Assembly (NCBI GenBank): GCA_012729725.1
Contig: JAAYCO010000094.1
Coordinates: forward strand, 557 to 64,556
Length of the DNA: 64,000 nt
DNA from: Planctomycetota bacterium
Lineage (GTDB): Bacteria; Planctomycetota; Phycisphaerae; SM23-33
Direction: 5' to 3'
Position 1 is the first letter of the stretch; each line of letters opens with the position of its first letter. The notes below the pieces were generated by a model that worked only from the letters and a program-made list of their open reading frames with translations, searched no databases and had not been told where the DNA came from. Both the position numbers and the translations under genes were made by a program. Shown piece by piece: positions 44-58,550 of this stretch.

Positions 44-285
44 AAAAACGACACCAAATCTACAAGTCCCGTTAACATCAGGGGTTACGCGCGACACCAA
101 ATGGAGCGGCATGACTTCCCTGCCGCCGAAGGGCGCCAGATGCTGTTGTGTGAGATCAGGTCGGCTGGGCATCATTTTCCGGATAGCGGAAGATCAGGGC
201 GGTGGGAAACGGCGGTGGGTGAAAAACGGCACCAAATTGGCAAGTTCATATAGGCCAAGCATTTACGCGCGACACCAAATGGAGC
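44..285 (+). repeat. Two direct copies of a ~64-bp element (44-107 and 222-285), about 70% identical and 178 bp apart. Each begins aaaaacgRcaccaaat and ends ttacgcgcgacaccaaatggagc, so the core gacaccaaat occurs four times.
   Basis: Read directly. The 23-nt string ttacgcgcgacaccaaatggagc is identical at 85-107 and 263-285. aaaaacgacaccaaat at 44-59 matches aaaaacggcaccaaat at 222-237. Confidence 0.6.
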
Positions 286-686: not shown

Positions 687-4151
<3,465 letters not shown>

Positions 4152-38748: not shown

Positions 38749-40353
38749 ATGAAGCTACCATCAGCTGTATTCTTCGCAATTGTTCTTGGTGCAGTTGCAT
38801 GCTCAGCCGTTGCACAGGACAACCTGCTTTCGAACGCCGGTTTTGAATCCGGCCAGAAGTTGCCCGATGGCTGGACTTCCACTGGCGCTGGAGCAGCGTG
38901 GGATTCCGCCTTGCGGCATGGCGGCGGCAGGTCGGTTCGCCTGAACGGCCAGAGTGGCAAGACCGCGCAGAAGTGGGAATCATCCTTTGTTCCCATCACG
39001 CCGCATGTGCCGTATGTCGCCTCGGCATGGGTTCGCACACAGAGCGTGCTTGAGAAACGCGGCTGGCTGCTGGTCAACACTTTTGATGCAAGCAAGAAGT
39101 GGATTCGCAGCTACTTCATCTATAAGCCGGATGGCTCGGCTGCCTGGAGAGAATATAGCAGGGCGTTCACGCCGAAGGACGGCGAGGTGCTCGCGCAGTT
39201 CACAGTCGCTCTTCGCGGCACGGGAACAATGTGGGCTGACGATGTTTCGCTTTCTCGGGCGATGAAATACACCGACGGCAACGGGGTGCTGCACATTGGC
39301 GGCAAGCCCGTGTTTCCTATAGGGCTGTACACGCATCCGTGCAAGACCGATTTTTTTGACGAGATCAGCCAGGCGGGGTTCAACGCGGTTCTGCCTTACA
39401 CGTCGGTTTATCTCTCGCCGACGGACGCCAAAAGCTACCTCGACGCCGCACAACGCAAGGGCATCCATGTCATTTACGCGCTGAAGGATTACATGACGCC
39501 ATGGCGTTTGGACGATCCGGAAGTCTGGACGCCTCGTCAGAAGGTAGTCGATGTGGTGTCAACGCTGAAGAATCACCCAGCCTTGCTGAGCTGGGGCATC
39601 GCGGACGAGCCCGAATTGCAGGGGGCTGGCGCAATCGACATGATCGAGACGCACAGCCTGATCAAGCAGATCGATCCACAAACGCCCACGTCGGCAGCGG
39701 TTTCCATTCCGGCAATGTACGGGTATTACGGAAGATATGTGGATGTGCTAATGCCGGATGTGTATCCTATTCCTCATTCCACTGTAGGAGCGGTTGGCGA
39801 TGCGGTCAGGGCGGCGACGGCAGCCGGCGCGTCATCCCAGCCGGTTTGGGCCGTAATTCAGGTGTTTGATCCGGCCGCCTTTGGAAGCAAACCTGAGGAC
39901 AACCCGCGAGCGCCGACATACGACGAGATACGGTGCATGAGTTACCTTGCAGTGGTCAACGGCGCCAAAGGCTTGTTCTACTTCTGCTACGACTCGCAGT
40001 ACAAGGTATACGAGCATCCTGAGCAGTGGGCTGGATTGAAGAAGATCGCCGGCGAGATCAAGACCCTTGTGCCGGTGATTCTCGCGCCACCGGCTGACCT
40101 GCATGTTTCCGTCAGTCCTGCCGAGCACGTTTCCACCACCACCAGGCTTTACGATGGAAAGGCGTATATCTTCGTAGTAAACAAGCACAATTCGCCGCGG
40201 GAGATGTCTGTGACGATATGCGGCGAGCAGAGCACATCGAGCGTGCGCCTTGTCGATACGCAGGAGCGCATCGACCTTCGCGACAACAGATTTGTCACGA
40301 CCATCCCTGGCTATGGCGCACAGATCTACAGTTTCGAGCTATCGCAAAATTAG
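38749..40353 (+). CDS. Secreted glycoside hydrolase: signal peptide, CBM_4_9-like carbohydrate-binding module, and a clan GH-A (beta/alpha)8 catalytic domain
   Basis: MKLPSAVFFAIVLGAVACSAVAQ is the signal peptide. NLLSNAGFESG...GWTSTG...AWVRTQ...MWADDVSLS is the CBM4/9 sandwich. GIADEPE resembles the GH-A NEP acid/base motif. Confidence 0.55.
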   Translation: MKLPSAVFFAIVLGAVACSAVAQDNLLSNAGFESGQKLPDGWTSTGAGAAWDSALRHGGGRSVRLNGQSGKTAQKWESSFVPITPHVPYVASAWVRTQSVLEKRGWLLVNTFDASKKWIRSYFIYKPDGSAAWREYSRAFTPKDGEVLAQFTVALRGTGTMWADDVSLSRAMKYTDGNGVLHIGGKPVFPIGLYTHPCKTDFFDEISQAGFNAVLPYTSVYLSPTDAKSYLDAAQRKGIHVIYALKDYMTPWRLDDPEVWTPRQKVVDVVSTLKNHPALLSWGIADEPELQGAGAIDMIETHSLIKQIDPQTPTSAAVSIPAMYGYYGRYVDVLMPDVYPIPHSTVGAVGDAVRAATAAGASSQPVWAVIQVFDPAAFGSKPEDNPRAPTYDEIRCMSYLAVVNGAKGLFYFCYDSQYKVYEHPEQWAGLKKIAGEIKTLVPVILAPPADLHVSVSPAEHVSTTTRLYDGKAYIFVVNKHNSPREMSVTICGEQSTSSVRLVDTQERIDLRDNRFVTTIPGYGAQIYSFELSQN

Positions 40354-40369
40354 TCGAGTCAGGCAGAAG

Positions 40370-40951
40370 CTAAGCGTCTCCGAGCGGGAATCTGGCCAGC
40401 GGGCGGTATTGGGCGCCGGTTTGGGCGAGAATGCTGGCGCAGATGACGATCTCGTCGGCGTGCTGAACGCCGAGGTCCATGGAGGCCAGTTTCTTTGCCC
40501 GATTCCGCAGGCCTTCGGCGTCGCGGCAGGAATTGATCCTCGCCATGGTTACGTGCGGCAGATATTCCCGGACCTCCGACCGAAGGCCCATAGAGCCCAT
40601 CATGCCGTTAATGCTGTCCTGAAGCATGGCCAGCCTTCCGGTGGGGTCTTCGATATTGGCCCATATCATCCGCGGGCATCTGTGCCCTCCGGGCGGCTGA
40701 CATGTTACGCCCTTTAGCTGGAAATCGAACGGCTCGATCGCTTGGCATATCGGCCTGACCTCGCGGCAGATATCGGCCAATTGCTCGTCGTTCACGCTGC
40801 CGGCGAAGGCCAGGGTGACATGCAGATTCTCCCGCACAACCCAGCGTATTCCCTTATCGTCAACGCCGTCAACCAGCCTGCGACGGGCCTCTTCAAGACT
40901 GTCGAGCACCGCGTCATCCAGATCCAGCGCCAAAAAGGTTCGAGTAGGCAT
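40370..40951 (-). CDS. thpR: RNA 2',3'-cyclic phosphodiesterase of the 2H phosphoesterase family (LigT/ThpR-like)
   Basis: Two HxT motifs (HVTLAF and HVTMAR) in a ~190-aa protein. Start at internal ATG MPTRTFLALDL; the upstream leader is not homologous. Confidence 0.75.
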   Translation of the reverse strand: MPTRTFLALDLDDAVLDSLEEARRRLVDGVDDKGIRWVVRENLHVTLAFAGSVNDEQLADICREVRPICQAIEPFDFQLKGVTCQPPGGHRCPRMIWANIEDPTGRLAMLQDSINGMMGSMGLRSEVREYLPHVTMARINSCRDAEGLRNRAKKLASMDLGVQHADEIVICASILAQTGAQYRPLARFPLGDA

Positions 40952-41170
40952 TCTCTGAATTATACGTTGCGGCTGTGAGGGTGCCAAAGGCGGCAATGTG
41001 ACAGAAAAGGCCGCTTGAGGATGTGGCCCCTCATGGCCTTGGCATCTGTGCCCGCGCCGGGGATCATGCAAAGGCGATGATTCGGCCGTCTGAAGCGACG
41101 ATTTCATATCGCTTGGTGAGAGTTCGACAGAGAAAGATGGAATCCTCCAACGTCGTTAGGAATGTCTACA

Positions 41171-41971
41171 TCAGGAAAAAAGAGGAAGGCCTGATGCCGG
41201 CTTCTTGGGCGGATAGAAGAGGCCGATTACAAGCCACTGGTTCAGCGGATGACGTGTTCCAACGAAGAATCTCGTGTCTTTGTCAGGGCCGCAAAGATCG
41301 TCAAGAAACTTCTGTTTGACGCTCTGTACGGCTGCATTTTCACCTTTGGACTCTCTTTCACGAAGGAATAAGGCTCCTAATTCCCAGTCTTCCAGCAGGA
41401 GGCGATGCGGCTCTTTCTGATCCAAGCAGCGGAAAACGTAGTGAAAACGGAAGGGGATGCGGTGGAGAGGCTTTCTTTTGCCGAACAGGAGCGGTTGCGC
41501 CATACGAGCTTCGTGCTTGGGCGCCCATTTCTTCTCGCCCTCTGTCACTTCCAGATCCAGAACTTCAGCAGGCCGGATGATCCCGAGAGATGTCCGGTTA
41601 GCAACCCATTGCCGCATGAGCTCGGTCAATGTTCTGTGGGGCATCTTGTCGATAATGAGGCGGCGCGTTTCCCATGCGTTTGATCGGGGCAGAGGTTCGC
41701 CGATAAGGCGAATCGAGTTGACTTCCGGCTCGCGGCTTTCAGGGCGGGGATCATTTTGATAGCCGCGACGGGCAAGACCTATCTCCATCCACTGCCATTT
41801 CTTGTATTGCTTTTCGACAGGAAGGTATCGATAAGGGACGGGGTAGATTCGCAACCAATCCCCCGATTCAGTAACGGCTGCTGTGCATACCGTCTCGTCA
41901 TGCTTGTCCGACGGATTCGGGTATGTCTTGACGGTTACAAGAACCTTTGTCAGCTCAAAGTCAGCTCGCAT
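41171..41971 (-). CDS. Hypothetical 266-aa protein with no recognisable family. It is the second gene of a coupled pair on a lower-GC islet.
   Basis: Clean ORF whose ATG at 41971 overlaps the upstream gene by 22 nt. Local GC is about 53-55% against about 62% in the flanks, estimated by eye. Confidence 0.5.
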   Translation of the reverse strand: MRADFELTKVLVTVKTYPNPSDKHDETVCTAAVTESGDWLRIYPVPYRYLPVEKQYKKWQWMEIGLARRGYQNDPRPESREPEVNSIRLIGEPLPRSNAWETRRLIIDKMPHRTLTELMRQWVANRTSLGIIRPAEVLDLEVTEGEKKWAPKHEARMAQPLLFGKRKPLHRIPFRFHYVFRCLDQKEPHRLLLEDWELGALFLRERESKGENAAVQSVKQKFLDDLCGPDKDTRFFVGTRHPLNQWLVIGLFYPPKKPASGLPLFS

Positions 41972-42885
41972 TCTGCACCCCGGATATCCTGCACTGGAAG
42001 ACCTGTCTGTGAAGATACCACGGCGGCCAGTCGTGTTCTATGGCACATTGCCGGATCTGCCTCCATGCATAGCAGAACGCTCGGCTTGTCAGAAACGAGA
42101 TGGCTCACCTCAGCCACTGCATCCTGCCTACGTGGTAAAAGGCTGGTGGTATATTCATCGAAGAGCGATGCATAGTCATCATCGCTTTGCAGATCTTGGC
42201 GCAGTTCAGATGGAATCCCAAGCTCCGGGAAGTGAACATATTCAAGGGCAATCCTTGATGTCAGTCGGGTGAGTGTGGACTTGTGGAATCCGTATCTTCG
42301 GGCGACGGGATTCCTGCGAACATCAATTACTCTGACGATTCCTCGACGCATCAGAGTATTGAGAAGCTGATCCACGGACCATTGCTCGTATCCGACCGTG
42401 TAGACGGCACACTTGGCCAGTGGTCGCTTACTCAGTTTGCGAATGCTGCTGTTAGATGTGTACCAAGGGAACGCATCGTAGACGTAGTCAATTAATTGTT
42501 CAGACGTGCGGGAGACGAACCGCTCGACTACGCGCGCTGCGTCAGCACGCAGACCACCGGGCATATTACCGACGCGGGCATCAACCTCGGCTGCGCGAGC
42601 CCACGCCTCACGACCATCAGCTTTGGTATCGCGCAGGTAGCCGTTGCGCACCAAGTCGTCCGCTTCATGGAATAGCGCAAACGAAAACGGCCCGTACTTG
42701 TACGGCAGGAAATCGTAAAATGACGCTCCCCCATGCGATGGCGTTTCATGCGCAAGCAAAAAAGCCCATTTGGTCAGTTCCAAGTGGGTCACCGGGCGAC
42801 CAGCCAGTTCAACCATGTACAGCAGGCACTTTTGGCGATTGAGCACTCGATGTCTCTCAGATCGTTCTATTCCTATAGTAGTCAT
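41950..42885 (-). CDS. Fusion protein: an N-terminal Panacea/SocA-like (DUF4065) antitoxin-type domain plus a C-terminal DUF488 (YeaO-like) domain
   Basis: The N-terminal half has LNRQKCLLYMVELAGRPVTHLELTKWAFLLAHE...FYDFLPYKYGPFSFALFHEADDLVRNGYL, matching the KLLYLAD...FEAWKYGPV..LY pattern. The C-terminal half has VYTVGYEQWSVDQLLNTLMRRGIVRVIDVRRNPVARRYGFHKSTLTRLTSRIALEYVHFPELG, matching DUF488. Start taken at the ATG with a GGAAGG SD (MTTIGIE). Confidence 0.5.
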   Translation of the reverse strand: MTTIGIERSERHRVLNRQKCLLYMVELAGRPVTHLELTKWAFLLAHETPSHGGASFYDFLPYKYGPFSFALFHEADDLVRNGYLRDTKADGREAWARAAEVDARVGNMPGGLRADAARVVERFVSRTSEQLIDYVYDAFPWYTSNSSIRKLSKRPLAKCAVYTVGYEQWSVDQLLNTLMRRGIVRVIDVRRNPVARRYGFHKSTLTRLTSRIALEYVHFPELGIPSELRQDLQSDDDYASLFDEYTTSLLPRRQDAVAEVSHLVSDKPSVLLCMEADPAMCHRTRLAAVVSSQTGLPVQDIRGAECELTLS

Positions 42886-43286
42886 CGGCATGCCTTCCAG
42901 CAACGCTTGATAGAACCTCGCCAGAAAAGGGCTACTCCCTCGGCATATCCCGGCTCACATCGCAAGCCGTGGCGCAACCGATTCCGTCGGCGTGCGAAGG
43001 TTTAATTGTGTGATGCCTGATTGACTTTTTTGGCTTTCGAGCGTATAAACAGCGGAATGCTCGTTTTCACTCCAGACAACATGGCTGCCGTTTACATCGT
43101 TCGCCGCAAGGCTCACGGCCGGCGGTTCGCGGTTTGGCTGGTCAAGTTGCGCACCGTGCCCGACGGCTGCCAAGACTAGTTTTGGCAACGTGTGAGGCCT
43201 CTATAAACGCCGGGCTTGCGGCCTGATTCGATGTCCGGCATTCAACTACCCGCTCCGCAAAGCGAAGCATCCGTTTGGTGAATTTC

Positions 43287-45137
<1,851 letters not shown>

Positions 45138-45206: not shown

Positions 45207-45704
45207 TTACCGGTCTGATGCCTTGCATGCCGCCTGGATTTCCGCGAGCACTTCTGGTGGAACCATTGACGATATGTCGCCGCCCATGCGGGCGATTTGC
45301 TTTATCAGGCTCGACGAAATGAAGGCGTATTCCGGGCCGGTCATGATGAAAACGGTCTCGATGCCGGCGACGACCCTGTTGGTCATCGCCACCTGGTATT
45401 CGAAGTTCAGGTCGGCGCTGTTGCGAATGCCTCGCAGTATCGTCGCCGCGCCGAGCCGGCGGGCCAGGTCGATCGTCAGGCCCGCATAGGCTTCAACCTT
45501 AACGTTGGCCATTGCGGCGAGGGCAGGCCTGATCATTTCGATACGTTGAGACTGTGTGAACAGCGATTTCTTGTCCGGGTTGTCTCCAACCGCAACTATC
45601 AGGCTCTCGAAGAGGTTGCTGCCGCGCCTGATGATGTCCAGATGCCCGTTTGTAATTGGGTCAAAAGTTCCTGGGAAAATCGCCAACCGTGTTTTGTTGG
45701 TCAT
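45207..45704 (-). CDS. coaD: Phosphopantetheine adenylyltransferase
   Basis: RLAIFPGTFDPITNGHLDIIRR is the T/HxGH motif. About 165 aa. Confidence 0.9.
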   Translation of the reverse strand: MTNKTRLAIFPGTFDPITNGHLDIIRRGSNLFESLIVAVGDNPDKKSLFTQSQRIEMIRPALAAMANVKVEAYAGLTIDLARRLGAATILRGIRNSADLNFEYQVAMTNRVVAGIETVFIMTGPEYAFISSSLIKQIARMGGDISSMVPPEVLAEIQAACKASDR

Positions 45705-45748
45705 TGCCTTCTCCATGCCGCGGCCCGCGGGCGAGCATCTTCAAACGC

Positions 45749-46633
45749 CTAAACCAGCGGCGTAACCTTGCCTGGTGGAATGTCCATGACCTTTCCGTCA
45801 ATGCTCACGCTTACCGGGATAGCGCTGGGGTTGTAAGCGGTTCGCTTGTTGGCGGCGACGACAAGTCGGCTGCGGGCGTAGTGGTAGTCCCACAGCTCGA
45901 TGTTGGTGCAGTACCACACATCGCTCTTGCCGCCCAGGGGTGCGAAATAGGATTCGAGTTTGTCCCAGCAGTCTCCGCGGTCGAACTCGTAACTGTGCCC
46001 CCATATGAAGAACACGCCCGACCACCGGCTGTTGTTATAGCATTCGTTCCATCGTTGCGGCATCGGCGAGGGGTTGGAAGCCTGCCAGTGCATGGTCGCC
46101 GGCCAGGCCAGCGGCTCGGCAACGGGGAAGCAGTTGGGCACAGCCTCGGTTGTTCGGGCGTAGACGATTCCGAGTTGCCGAAGCAGGGCGATGACCTCGG
46201 CGTTGTAGGCGCCGTTGGGATACGCCATGCCGCGCACGGGATAGCACACCAGATCCTCAAGCGCCTTGCGGTCGTCGATTATTTCCTGGGCGAACTCGGC
46301 CAGGGAAACCAACGTCGCGCTGGGATGCGTTGCCGAATGCACTGCAACCTCGTGCCCGGCGTAAAGCTCGGCAACTTCGCAGGCATCTATTCGCTGCTTC
46401 GCCTCGATTGGCGTGGGCTTGCCGGTCCTGCCCAATATGCCCGAGTTGAGGTTGAACGTGCCTTTGATTCCCCATCGATTGAACGCTTCGACCACTGGGC
46501 GGTCGAATACCAGCCCGTCGTCCCAACTCGTGGTCACGGCGATGCGTTTGTTGCCGGGAAAACGCGGAATAACAACCCTTGCTGGCGCAGGTGCGACAGT
46601 CACAATTAGCTCCTTTATTACAGCACTTCGCAT
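45749..46633 (-). CDS. Polysaccharide deacetylase (CE4/NodB-homology) family protein
   Basis: RIAVTTSWDDG is NodB motif 1. GHEVAVHSATH is the His-His metal motif. Confidence 0.7.
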   Translation of the reverse strand: MRSAVIKELIVTVAPAPARVVIPRFPGNKRIAVTTSWDDGLVFDRPVVEAFNRWGIKGTFNLNSGILGRTGKPTPIEAKQRIDACEVAELYAGHEVAVHSATHPSATLVSLAEFAQEIIDDRKALEDLVCYPVRGMAYPNGAYNAEVIALLRQLGIVYARTTEAVPNCFPVAEPLAWPATMHWQASNPSPMPQRWNECYNNSRWSGVFFIWGHSYEFDRGDCWDKLESYFAPLGGKSDVWYCTNIELWDYHYARSRLVVAANKRTAYNPSAIPVSVSIDGKVMDIPPGKVTPLV

Positions 46634-46720
46634 GAACGACGAACTCGGCCAGCGAATATACCGCCGTACGTGTTCTGCGTCCAGCATCGCGGGCAAGGCT
46701 CTTGCAAGGTCAGCGTGCGG

Positions 46721-55885: not shown

Positions 55886-56125
55886 GCTGTCTCCTCAACT
55901 ACTGCTGCATCTACGTTCCAGACATAATGGCCTGCGCCTACGCGATAAGATGGATTATACAAAAGGCAGTATGTGTAAGCGAAGCGCATCTTGGACACGA
56001 ATTATAGATGGCCCCCGCGCCCTGTCAACATAATAGAAAATCCGACAACTAGCACTACCACCTCGGCCGTTTTGAAGATACAACTGTTCCAAGCGGCAGT
56101 TTATGCGGCAATTCGGAGAACGCCC

Positions 56126-57112
56126 ATGACGGCAAGATGCATCCCGGCGGCAATAGCGGCAATATTGACGTGCCTGCCCTGCGCAATAGCCGACGAACAG
56201 ACAATCGACCAGCTCGAAGCCAGAAGAGATGAGATCCAACGCACTGTTCGCCCGAAAATATGCGCCCGCTTAAGAGAAATCCGCGCCGAAGTGCTTGCTG
56301 AGCCGCAGCTTGCGCAACTTCAAACACAGATCGTCGCCGCAAGAAAAGCCATTTGCCGCACACTGGAGGAGGATGAGGACATCCTGGCTGCGTCAGCCGA
56401 TCTGAAGGCTGCACAGGATCAAATGGCCGCAATTGTGGGCGAGCGTCTTGCAGCAGATCCCGTTGTCGCCGAGCTGAAGCGAAAGGTGACGGCAATAGAA
56501 CAGCAGATCGAGACGCTTGGCCTGGAGCACCGCAAGGCCAACTTCCTGCTCCATGAGGCCCGGAGGCGGGCCTGCGCCGACCCTGCTGTGGTGCGCCTCG
56601 AGGCCCAAGTGGCAAGGGCCAGACAGGTGCTGCTGGACGATTCTCGCAATCCGGCGCTTTATGAGCAACTTCGCCTTGCGGTTCGCATGCATAACGAGGC
56701 GATCTGCAGCGCTGCCGATGCGGCCTCCATGCGGGATCTCTCGAAACAGGTTCTCCAGCAGATGCCCGAAACTCTTGGCGGACTTCGCAAGCAGCTTCGC
56801 CAGTGCCGAGAAGAACTGTATCAAGCCCGCCAAAAAGTCATCCGCGAGCATTCCGACATAGCCCGAATGAGGGACGAATGCGACAGGCTCAGACGCCGAC
56901 TCAGGTCGATTTCATTCGAGCGCACCGCCGATGACCGAAAAAAACTCGGCTCACTTGAGTTTCAGCTATCGTCAGAGCTTGCCGCCAGAATGGCTGAGCA
57001 TCCTGCCGCCGTGGAGCTTCAGCGTCAAAGAACGAGCATCCGCCAGGATCTTGCGGAAATCCGCAGCCAGATTTCCAAACGAAATCAGCAAGGCGCCCCG
57101 CTGGAGCAGTAG
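56126..57112 (+). CDS. Secreted coiled-coil protein, hypothetical
   Basis: MTARCIPAAIAAILTCLPCAIA is a signal-like N-terminus. A long Q/R/E/A-rich heptad-repeat region follows. Start at internal ATG. Confidence 0.4.
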   Translation: MTARCIPAAIAAILTCLPCAIADEQTIDQLEARRDEIQRTVRPKICARLREIRAEVLAEPQLAQLQTQIVAARKAICRTLEEDEDILAASADLKAAQDQMAAIVGERLAADPVVAELKRKVTAIEQQIETLGLEHRKANFLLHEARRRACADPAVVRLEAQVARARQVLLDDSRNPALYEQLRLAVRMHNEAICSAADAASMRDLSKQVLQQMPETLGGLRKQLRQCREELYQARQKVIREHSDIARMRDECDRLRRRLRSISFERTADDRKKLGSLEFQLSSELAARMAEHPAAVELQRQRTSIRQDLAEIRSQISKRNQQGAPLEQ

Positions 57113-57140
57113 TTGATTCAGGCGCCTGCTCTTGTAGGCT

Positions 57141-58550
57141 TTGGAGGTGCGGACTCTGTTGAGGCAAAAGAAACTCAAGTTGTTGCTGTCCTTGGCAACA
57201 CTCCTGGTTGTCGGCGGCTTTGTCTGCAAACAATCCCTTAATCACGTCCAGGTCCGACAGGAAGCGGCGCAAGCTCAGTCGGTTACGCAGAATTACATAC
57301 ATAACTTTGATCCTGAACAATACATGCGTGCCGGAACAGACTTCTTTAACCCAAGATACAGTCCGCTTCGGCTTAACAAACCGCTCGATCAGATCGACAG
57401 AACTTACGATTACCCTTTCCAGCACCTTGAGAAAATCGAGAACAGGCTTAAGCACGTTGATCGTCGAACAGCACTAAAGGGTATTTTTGAGAAAATAACC
57501 TGCGGCGCACAATCCGATCACGAACGTCATCTGGCTGTTCTGAATTTCTTGTACAGGGCGGCCTATCATAATGCCTTTGTTCAGCCAATGTACGAAGACA
57601 AGCAAGCTGTGTTTGATCCGCTGGTGCTTCTTGAGTTGGGCGAAATGCGTTGTGGCGCAGTCGCCAGAGTCGCTGCTGACCTGTTCGATGCTGCAGGCTA
57701 TCGAACCAGGCTGGTGCAAGCCTATGCACATACTACAGCGGAAATTCATTATGATGGAGGGTGGCATCTTTTTGAGGCCGATCTTGCTGGTGGTCCTCCT
57801 GTTTTAAGCGAAGGGCGCATTCCTTCGGTCGAAGAGCTCGCAGAATGCCCTTTTCTCATTGACAGAGTACCTACCCATTTTGAAGGATATGTGGCTCCAC
57901 AGCGCGTAACAGTTCTTCACCAATCCCGCAGAAAACGCATCGATTCCCATATGGCTCCGCAAAAGGCAGATGAAGGAAAATCGCCAATATATCCCTCTTA
58001 CTTTTTCTTCTCCAAGAAAGCTCTCGGTAATACTGAAGCGTCCTATTACTACAAGACCGCTACGCCTGAAGAGGCCGCTAATTCAAAATGGTATGGCTGG
58101 GATTATTACGTAACGACCACCGATCGCTGGAAGCTCACTGATTTTGAGCCAAGGCACGAACCTGACCCGCCCGAGTTCAAAGATGTGAGTGTGCAAGGAG
58201 ACAAGTTCGTACTGGAATGGCTGCCTGCTCGAGATTCAGACCATGACCTTCTTGGCTATCGTGTTTATGTGTCGAGCCAAAGCAGAGGATGGAACTATCA
58301 GGACATTCAAGCACCCGCGAATGTAAAAAAGTACTTTTTGGGCGGCTGGAAGCCCCAGATGTACGACAACTTATTCAAAGAGCCGCCAAGAGACGTGGCT
58401 TTTTTTGAAACACAGTCGACCAGCCTGGAGCTTTCTCTCCCGAATGACGGAACACCAGTTTATGTGACAGTAATGCCATTTGATAAGCATGGTGAGTCGG
58501 TGGGCAGACGTCTTTACAACATGTCCCCCGAGCTAAGACTGTCTCATTGA
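57141..58550 (+). CDS. Membrane-anchored transglutaminase-like (papain-fold Cys-His-Asp) domain protein with a C-terminal FN3-like domain, lower GC
   Basis: An N-terminal TM helix (LKLLLSLATLLVVGGFV) is followed by GEMRCGAVARVAADLFDAAGYRTRLVQAYAHTTAEIHYDGGWHLFEADL. This matches the transglutaminase-like C...H...D core. GC is about 48-50% by eye. Confidence 0.5.
   Translation: MEVRTLLRQKKLKLLLSLATLLVVGGFVCKQSLNHVQVRQEAAQAQSVTQNYIHNFDPEQYMRAGTDFFNPRYSPLRLNKPLDQIDRTYDYPFQHLEKIENRLKHVDRRTALKGIFEKITCGAQSDHERHLAVLNFLYRAAYHNAFVQPMYEDKQAVFDPLVLLELGEMRCGAVARVAADLFDAAGYRTRLVQAYAHTTAEIHYDGGWHLFEADLAGGPPVLSEGRIPSVEELAECPFLIDRVPTHFEGYVAPQRVTVLHQSRRKRIDSHMAPQKADEGKSPIYPSYFFFSKKALGNTEASYYYKTATPEEAANSKWYGWDYYVTTTDRWKLTDFEPRHEPDPPEFKDVSVQGDKFVLEWLPARDSDHDLLGYRVYVSSQSRGWNYQDIQAPANVKKYFLGGWKPQMYDNLFKEPPRDVAFFETQSTSLELSLPNDGTPVYVTVMPFDKHGESVGRRLYNMSPELRLSH

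Follow-up and report, generated by a model that had tools for sequence, protein, structure and literature searches.

The closest described relatives of the locus reported here are found among the PDC systems of PADLOC, 145 candidates derived by guilt-by-embedding from genes that lie within BREX, DISARM and type I restriction-modification (RM) loci (Payne et al. 2024 preprint). The locus itself is a pair of genes, A and B, in a 64,000-nucleotide (nt) stretch of contig JAAYCO010000094.1 from a bacterium of the Phycisphaerae (Planctomycetota); we refer to this whole stretch as the window. By their profile matches, the two genes form a member of the already catalogued candidate family PDC-M19, so the cassette is not new. 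We interpret it as a solitary, horizontally mobile PDC-M19 cassette whose most likely role is defence against phages or other mobile genetic elements, possibly of an abortive, toxin-antitoxin-like kind, and we put the probability of this reading at about 0.5. The core idea of the initial annotation of this stretch, a coupled and horizontally mobile two-gene module of defence-like or toxin-antitoxin-like character, is sound.

Gene A carries a DUF488 domain, a very widespread domain for which we know of no experiment that establishes the function. It was reportedly placed by Burroughs and Aravind in 2023 in a RapZ-C/DUF488/DUF4326 clade and predicted to process DNA ends and ADP-ribose or sugar phosphates as part of conflict systems. 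A preprint that seems to build on this work states that DUF488 occurs near prophages and defence islands, and an archaeal fusion of ParB, DUF488 and a helix-turn-helix (HTH) domain has been reported to bind CTP.

The gene pair and its predicted products

The open reading frame (ORF) list places two minus-strand genes, A upstream of B, between thpR and typA. The initial annotation had described them in this way, and ORF coordinates and sequence agree with it, as does the identification of the flanking products as a LigT/ThpR-type 2H phosphoesterase and TypA/BipA. Its mention of toxin-antitoxin or defence-like domain content is also borne out, as both genes match PDC-M19 components nearly end to end. 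Gene A aligns with PDLC04505 (M19A) with an E value of 5.2e-74 over amino acids (aa) 21-300 of 317 (profile positions 2-285 of 294), and gene B with PDLC04508 (M19B) with an E value of 1.7e-73 over aa 7-258 (profile positions 3-264 of 269). The stop of gene A at 41950 lies beyond the ATG of gene B at 41971, the same methionine at which the alignment of gene B homologues begins, and the resulting 22-nt overlap suggests that A and B are translationally coupled. The same 22-nt overlap is present in the relatives L005 and L006, and an overlap of 1-4 nt in L007 and in L178-L182. The start of gene A is ambiguous. The ORF taken from the first TTG spans 41950-42903 on the minus strand (317 aa), with further candidates at ATG 42885 (311 aa), GTG 42846 (298 aa) and ATG 42816 (288 aa), the last being the start used by the public annotation (P0121). 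ATG 42885 or GTG 42846 is more likely, and GTG 42846 gives the best fit to the homologue consensus MLNRQKCLLYM in the alignment.

The search with the gene A protein retrieved 1184 homologues, and its AlphaFold2 (AF2) model has a mean predicted local distance difference test (pLDDT) score of 89.9. The C-terminal half matches DUF488 (PF04343) with 82.9 bits against a gathering cutoff of 22.2, and all 69 aligned homologues match the same family. Ten residues invariant across these 69 sequences are present in gene A (C273, E275, C281, H282, R283, D188, R190, R196, R197 and H201), and because the family-invariant residues are intact the domain is probably active as an enzyme. In the AF2 secondary structure, a strand ends at C273 and a helix begins at H282, which frames the predicted active-site loop. 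The domain shares its fold with cysteine phosphatases of the protein tyrosine and dual-specificity types, but the HCX5R P-loop of these enzymes is absent and replaced by a loop of the form C273-X7-C281-H-R283, so it should not be filed as a canonical tyrosine phosphatase.

No Pfam or NCBIfam family, Panacea/DUF4065 included, was matched by the N-terminal 155 or so residues of gene A. In PADLOC, positions 157-237 of the DarG profile, which lie beyond the macrodomain, match aa 16-100, and the C-terminal 120 positions of a type I S-subunit profile match aa 42-160. Gene A appears to combine a winged-helix domain, resembling the C-terminal, DarT-binding region of DarG, with DUF488. This region may be a point of resemblance to DarTG. 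The differences are that gene A has DUF488 in the place of the macrodomain or NADAR domain, with the domain order reversed, and that gene B has no DarT match in PADLOC or Pfam, is not an ADP-ribosyltransferase and models as a tandem OB protein.

Gene B belongs to a large family of 2,560 clusters at 50% identity (E<=1e-3), nearly all of 255-285 aa, which has no entry in Pfam or NCBIfam; a match to phrog_25907 was found (1.6e-44). Neither gene B nor gene A has sequence relatives in the PDB by single-sequence or profile searches. The AF2 model of gene B (pLDDT 93.0) confidently predicts a tandem OB fold. In Foldseek, the whole chain (260-300 columns) aligns with the tandem-OB proteins CTC1, Oxytricha TEBP-alpha, Teb1, RPA70, POT1 and the HIN domains of AIM2/p202, with E values of 1e-5 to 1e-3 and TM scores of only 0.3-0.43. 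From this model, gene B is likely to be a single-stranded-DNA-binding protein. Compared with the described tandem-OB binders (POT1, TEBP-alpha, DBD-A/B of RPA70, CTC1 and HIN-200 of AIM2/p202), the fold alignment is full length but there is no sequence similarity, and the three invariant cysteines and the helical hairpin of gene B are missing from them. The invariant aromatic residues of the family (W39, W61, W100, W149, W196, W246, F176, Y178 and F180) would suit base stacking.

Linkage and mobility of the two genes

The association of DUF488 with gene B extends well beyond the Phycisphaerae. A gene B homologue touches a DUF488 gene in all nine plasmid and phage records inspected; DUF488 homology was confirmed in eight of them by tblastn, Pfam or the record annotation, and was deduced in the Fischerella record (L176) from its Calothrix-like layout. 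The two genes were likewise adjacent in 7/7 distinct metagenomic contexts, and for 27 of the top matches of the separate A and B protein searches the longest contig was of identical size in both. In the Phycisphaerae-type clade, the A-then-B order is found again, the two genes overlapping by 1-22 nt. In more remote lineages, the DUF488 domain is all that the partner of B retains, and the partner gene can lie upstream, downstream or in convergent orientation. It stands alone and convergent with B on Pseudomonas, Rhizobium and Arthrobacter plasmids and in Gordonia phages, alone and upstream of B in Sulfitobacter, and downstream of B in Calothrix (and, if the Fischerella neighbour is indeed a DUF488 gene, there as well). 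In Streptomyces, DUF488 is fused to an XRE HTH, and on a Saccharolobus plasmid to ParB_N and HTH_ParB. Since the adjacency is kept despite shuffled order, orientation and fusions, there is strong evidence that DUF488 and B are functionally coupled. The conserved core of the module is DUF488 plus the tandem-OB protein, with DUF488 swapping heads of DarG-C-like, XRE or ParB-CTPase type.

Two observations on module variants can be added. The Saccharolobus shibatae plasmid pBEU9E1 (L172, 3933-4982) has a gene annotated as a ParB/RepB/Spo0J partition protein that is in fact the ParB_N, HTH_ParB and DUF488 fusion, directly upstream of a gene B homologue, and the "partition protein" label is probably misleading. 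In two independent contigs, a 126-aa ORF with no recorded Pfam match abuts the end of the B homologue (L180, 8799-9179; L181, 2151-2531); it is absent from the window and could serve as a third, accessory component in certain variants of PDC-M19.

The horizontal mobility that the initial annotation had proposed is well supported. Close homologues of the pair (59-82% identity) are found at unrelated loci in three other Phycisphaerae contigs, and in three other genomes the pair lies 7-9 GC points below its flanks. The surroundings of the relatives include a complete HsdR-HsdS-HsdM type I RM locus that the pair directly follows (L179), a region with NACHT/Mrr, AbiEi/AbiEii and transposase genes (L180), and a DDE_3 transposase beside an HNH gene (L182). 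Gene B homologues are carried by 23 plasmids of Actinomycetota, Pseudomonadota, Cyanobacteriota and Sulfolobales, 11 of them conjugative and 4 mobilisable, and the Pseudomonas plasmid copy adjoins a HEPN/Toprim protein gene. Both A and B have PHROG families. Seven records of Gordonia temperate phages carry gene B homologues adjoining the immunity repressor and integrase. In Eviarto, Nymphadora and BatStarr, gp43 is the B homologue; it comes immediately after the immunity repressor, gp44, and the convergent DUF488 gene gp42 lies near the integrase. The repressor gp44 was considered as a gene A homologue and rejected as unrelated, the DUF488 gene of these phages being gp42. Prophage-expressed defence genes are said to have been described beside the immunity repressor of actinobacteriophages by Dedrick in 2017 and Montgomery in 2019. 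The position of gp43 is alike, with no defence phenotype reported for the Gordonia genes.

How the cassette reached its present position in the window is a separate matter. The initial annotation had placed it as an insertion between thpR and typA, but among about 160 related typA loci (scans of genome contigs and metagenomes with TypA) not one has thpR, A or B beside typA, and scanning metagenomes with ThpR gave no match. Because none of these loci has thpR beside typA, they show no conserved junction and no empty site from which an insertion at this point could be demonstrated. In the nearest relative (L009, TypA 87% identical), which lies on short contigs, a tRNA-Tyr gene stands upstream of a small ORF and typA. 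Neither the cassette nor thpR is present at that place, and after 413 nt the contig stops. In that contig, tRNA-Tyr and a truncated second tRNA (1-123) occupy the place directly upstream of the small ORF and typA that is held in the window by the cassette and thpR, and homology with the window begins exactly at 43021. The search for att-type or other flanking direct repeats around the cassette, another trace of insertion suggested at the outset, gave only short, imperfect matches of the kind that chance alone would produce. No integrase, transposase or other mobility gene was found near the window copy, and no tRNA gene within the window. In these respects, the copy differs from integrative genomic islands, with their integrase or transposase, flanking direct repeats and tRNA target.

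Base composition and flanking transcription units

The region 41100-43270 (2,171 bp) has a GC content of 0.539, against 0.582 for the whole window, 0.599 for thpR and 0.592 for typA, and it falls in the lowest 3.8% of windows of the same size. The drop from 62% to 53% reported in the initial annotation is therefore real as a dip, but its size is about 5 points from flanks of about 59-60%, not 9, and across the 34-44 kb stretch the GC content is already 0.55-0.56. The dip is concentrated at codon position 3, where gene B has a GC content (GC3) of 0.581 and gene A one of 0.550, versus 0.68 +/- 0.06 for 46 ORFs of the window, and a codon-adaptation index trained on the window is low by 1.3 standard deviations for gene B and by 2.3 for gene A. 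Of the compositional break expected from the first inspection, codon usage thus bears out one part and tetranucleotide usage does not bear out the other, as the distance of the region to the window is at the 82nd percentile and no outlier, and tetranucleotide signature was rejected as a sign of foreign origin. Elsewhere in the window, two plus-strand ORFs of 373 and 469 aa at 55991-58550 have no Pfam family; one of them has the lowest GC3 of the window (0.49), and this segment, with the strongest tetranucleotide deviation, is a better compositional islet than 41100-43270.

A promoter reading TTGACT-17-TATAAA was indeed found on the plus strand, as first noted, but not as part of the islet. This promoter ends 7 nt before the ATG of a 40-aa small ORF (MLVFTPDNMAAVYIVRRKAHGRRFAVWLVKLRTVPDGCQD) about 100 nt upstream of typA, and in L009 the hexamers, the spacer length and the 7-nt distance are identical. 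Because it is conserved there together with the small ORF, the promoter belongs to a unit formed by the small ORF and typA and not to the cassette, and the transcript of this unit is probably leaderless. In codons 15-37 of the small ORF, 11 of 12 nucleotide differences between the window and L009 are synonymous, and L106/L107 and L092 also have the peptide core GRRFAVWL ahead of typA. No Pfam or Rfam match was obtained for the small ORF, and an Rfam scan of 40000-44000 had no match either. A 63-bp conserved element was considered as an RNA and rejected, being coding. The small ORF may encode a peptide with a leader or regulatory function for TypA/BipA, a translational GTPase. For gene A itself, no sigma-70-like promoter was found on the minus strand within 42886-43020.

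On the other side of the cassette, thpR has its own near-consensus promoter (TTGGCA-17-TATAAT, 11/12), which ends 7 nt before the ATG at 40951. Because of this promoter, thpR is probably a separate transcription unit that starts at 40951, leaderless and coding for 193 aa, not 245 aa; public gene calls likewise begin it at 40951 (193 aa). The gene was considered as a third component of the cassette and rejected, given its promoter and the fact that it never accompanies the pair elsewhere. Further along, the 317-aa ORF at 45656-46609 on the plus strand is antisense to the polysaccharide deacetylase gene at 45749-46696 on the minus strand. Its codon statistics are atypical, and this ORF, almost certainly spurious, inflates ORF lists.

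Features of the cassette and of the flanking promoters and small ORF (positions refer to the window unless a contig is named)
Feature	Position	Strand	Description or basis
Gene A (PDC-M19A-like)	41950..42885	-	311 aa; PADLOC PDLC04505; AF2 model
Gene A N-terminal domain, aa 1-155	42421..42885	-	predicted, winged-helix based; outside every Pfam family
Gene A DUF488 domain, aa 171-289	42019..42375	-	predicted cysteine-phosphatase-like Rossmannoid fold
DUF488 predicted active-site loop, C273-M-E-A-D-P-A-M-C281-H282-R283	42037..42069	-	sequence and AF2 secondary structure
Gene B (PDC-M19B-like)	41171..41971	-	266 aa; PADLOC PDLC04508
Gene B first OB fold, aa 5-90	41702..41959	-	model
Gene B second half, aa 100-252	41216..41674	-	OB-like, beta-rich, with inserted helical hairpin; Foldseek
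Overlap of genes A and B, 22 nt	41950..41971	-	ORF list and sequence
Intergenic stretch upstream of gene A	42886..43020	-	expected site of cassette promoter/operator
thpR promoter, TTGGCA-17-TATAAT	40987..40959	-	
Promoter of the small ORF and typA, TTGACT	43021..43026	+	
Promoter of the small ORF and typA, TATAAA	43044..43049	+	
Small ORF upstream of typA	43057..43179	+	40 aa
Counterparts of the small ORF	L009 378-536; L106 about 3560-3700; L092 about 50-190		upstream of typA

Possible roles of the cassette

In a defence role, gene B would bind single-stranded DNA, or DNA ends, of an element that is invading or replicating. DUF488, as an enzyme with an arginine-rich pocket, would act on the phosphate of a nucleic-acid terminus, on a nucleotide or on an ADP-ribose-type sugar, and this action could either block the invader or restrain the activity of gene B. 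The N-terminal domain of gene A may tether A to B, by analogy with the C-terminal domain of DarG that tethers DarT, and/or may bind DNA and autoregulate the operon. A more specific scheme, which we consider unlikely as it stands, would make the tandem-OB protein a sensor, similar to POT1/TEBP or HIN-200 proteins, that detects single-stranded DNA or free ends and directs DUF488 to modify these ends; a terminal phosphate, for instance, might be taken off or passed on, so that ligation, circularisation or priming is blocked.

A defence role is supported by the placement in PDC-M19, along with the linkage of the two genes, the contexts of relatives, the folds, the invariant residues and the mobility. 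Both profiles are matched nearly in full by adjacent genes on the same strand, and relatives lie in classic defence contexts (L179 and L180). The window copy is not embedded in such a locus, and embedding was the discovery criterion of PDC-M19, not a detection rule. Several points weigh against a defence role. PDC-M19 is a predicted candidate family, with no tested activity, proposed mechanism or mention in the literature searched; no solved or biochemically characterised DUF488 relative was detected by sequence; and the C-X7-C-H-R spacing of the loop is unlike the canonical CX5R. The neighbours of the window copy are ordinary genes (DksA-like, LspA, GntR, CoaD and glycosidases) with no defence-island context, the tetranucleotide usage of the region is unremarkable, and certain plasmid-borne copies share their region with ssb, radC and DUF932 genes, which fits the establishment of an element as well as it fits defence.

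The alternative that survives best, though we still judge it rather improbable, is that the pair is a type II or type IV toxin-antitoxin (addiction) module and is not dedicated to defence. B would then act as the toxin, by coating or blocking single-stranded DNA, and A as its antitoxin. The parts of A could be assigned accordingly, with the DarG-C-like domain binding B, the winged helix repressing the operon and DUF488 perhaps reversing the effect of B. The pair does share with type II operons a small, overlapping two-gene layout with a predicted DNA-binding first protein, the putative antitoxin gene being first, and the resemblance of its N-terminal domain to the toxin-binding part of DarG, the interchangeable DNA-binding heads of DUF488 partners (XRE-HTH in Streptomyces, ParB_N and HTH in Saccharolobus, a winged helix here) and the solitary occurrence of the cassette at many unrelated chromosomal sites and on plasmids all point the same way. 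Gene B, however, has no known or recognisable toxin fold. The arrangement is also unusual for a type II system in roughly half of the replicons inspected, where the two genes converge and the DUF488 protein lacks a DNA-binding domain.

A module for the establishment, maintenance or anti-defence of mobile elements would have the OB protein protecting or marking incoming single-stranded DNA or ends that DUF488 then processes, with the window copy as a remnant of a lost element. The plasmid distribution agrees with it (11 conjugative and 4 mobilisable of 23), as do the Sulfitobacter pair adjoining ssb, radC and DUF932 genes, the fusion to a ParB CTPase-HTH on Sulfolobales conjugative plasmids, given the CTP binding reported for ParB-DUF488-HTH, and the pair in the lysogeny region of Gordonia phages together with the PHROG families of both genes. 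Against it, no integrase, transposase, relaxase or repeats were found in the surroundings of the window copy or of L004, L005 and L007, the genes from which PADLOC derived the family sit within RM, BREX and DISARM loci, and the contexts of L179 and L180 are those of defence; on balance, we hold this role to be distinctly unlikely.

That the pair is a vertically inherited housekeeping couple for nucleic-acid repair, with the GC dip as ordinary gene-to-gene variation and no islet, is highly improbable: the dip is modest, tetranucleotide usage is no outlier, several other genes of the window have an equally low GC3 and the next gene downstream on that strand is thpR, whose product is an RNA-end-healing enzyme, but the pair is absent from all of the related typA loci and differs in position in every relative that has it, its GC deficit recurs in the three other genomes, and thpR has a strong promoter of its own and does not accompany the pair elsewhere.

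For the organism, what the cassette contributes is one solitary mobile defence-like or toxin-antitoxin-like module, not a defence island. For the family, the obligate partner of DUF488 in this module, a protein with about 2,500 clusters at 50% identity, is one without a family name, and the module travels among chromosomes, plasmids, phages and archaea. The anatomy of DUF488 plus a tandem-OB protein gives the defence candidate PDC-M19 a concrete, testable model. If an OB sensor does direct end modification by DUF488, this would be the first function for DUF488 and would add DNA-end chemistry to the mechanisms of defence.

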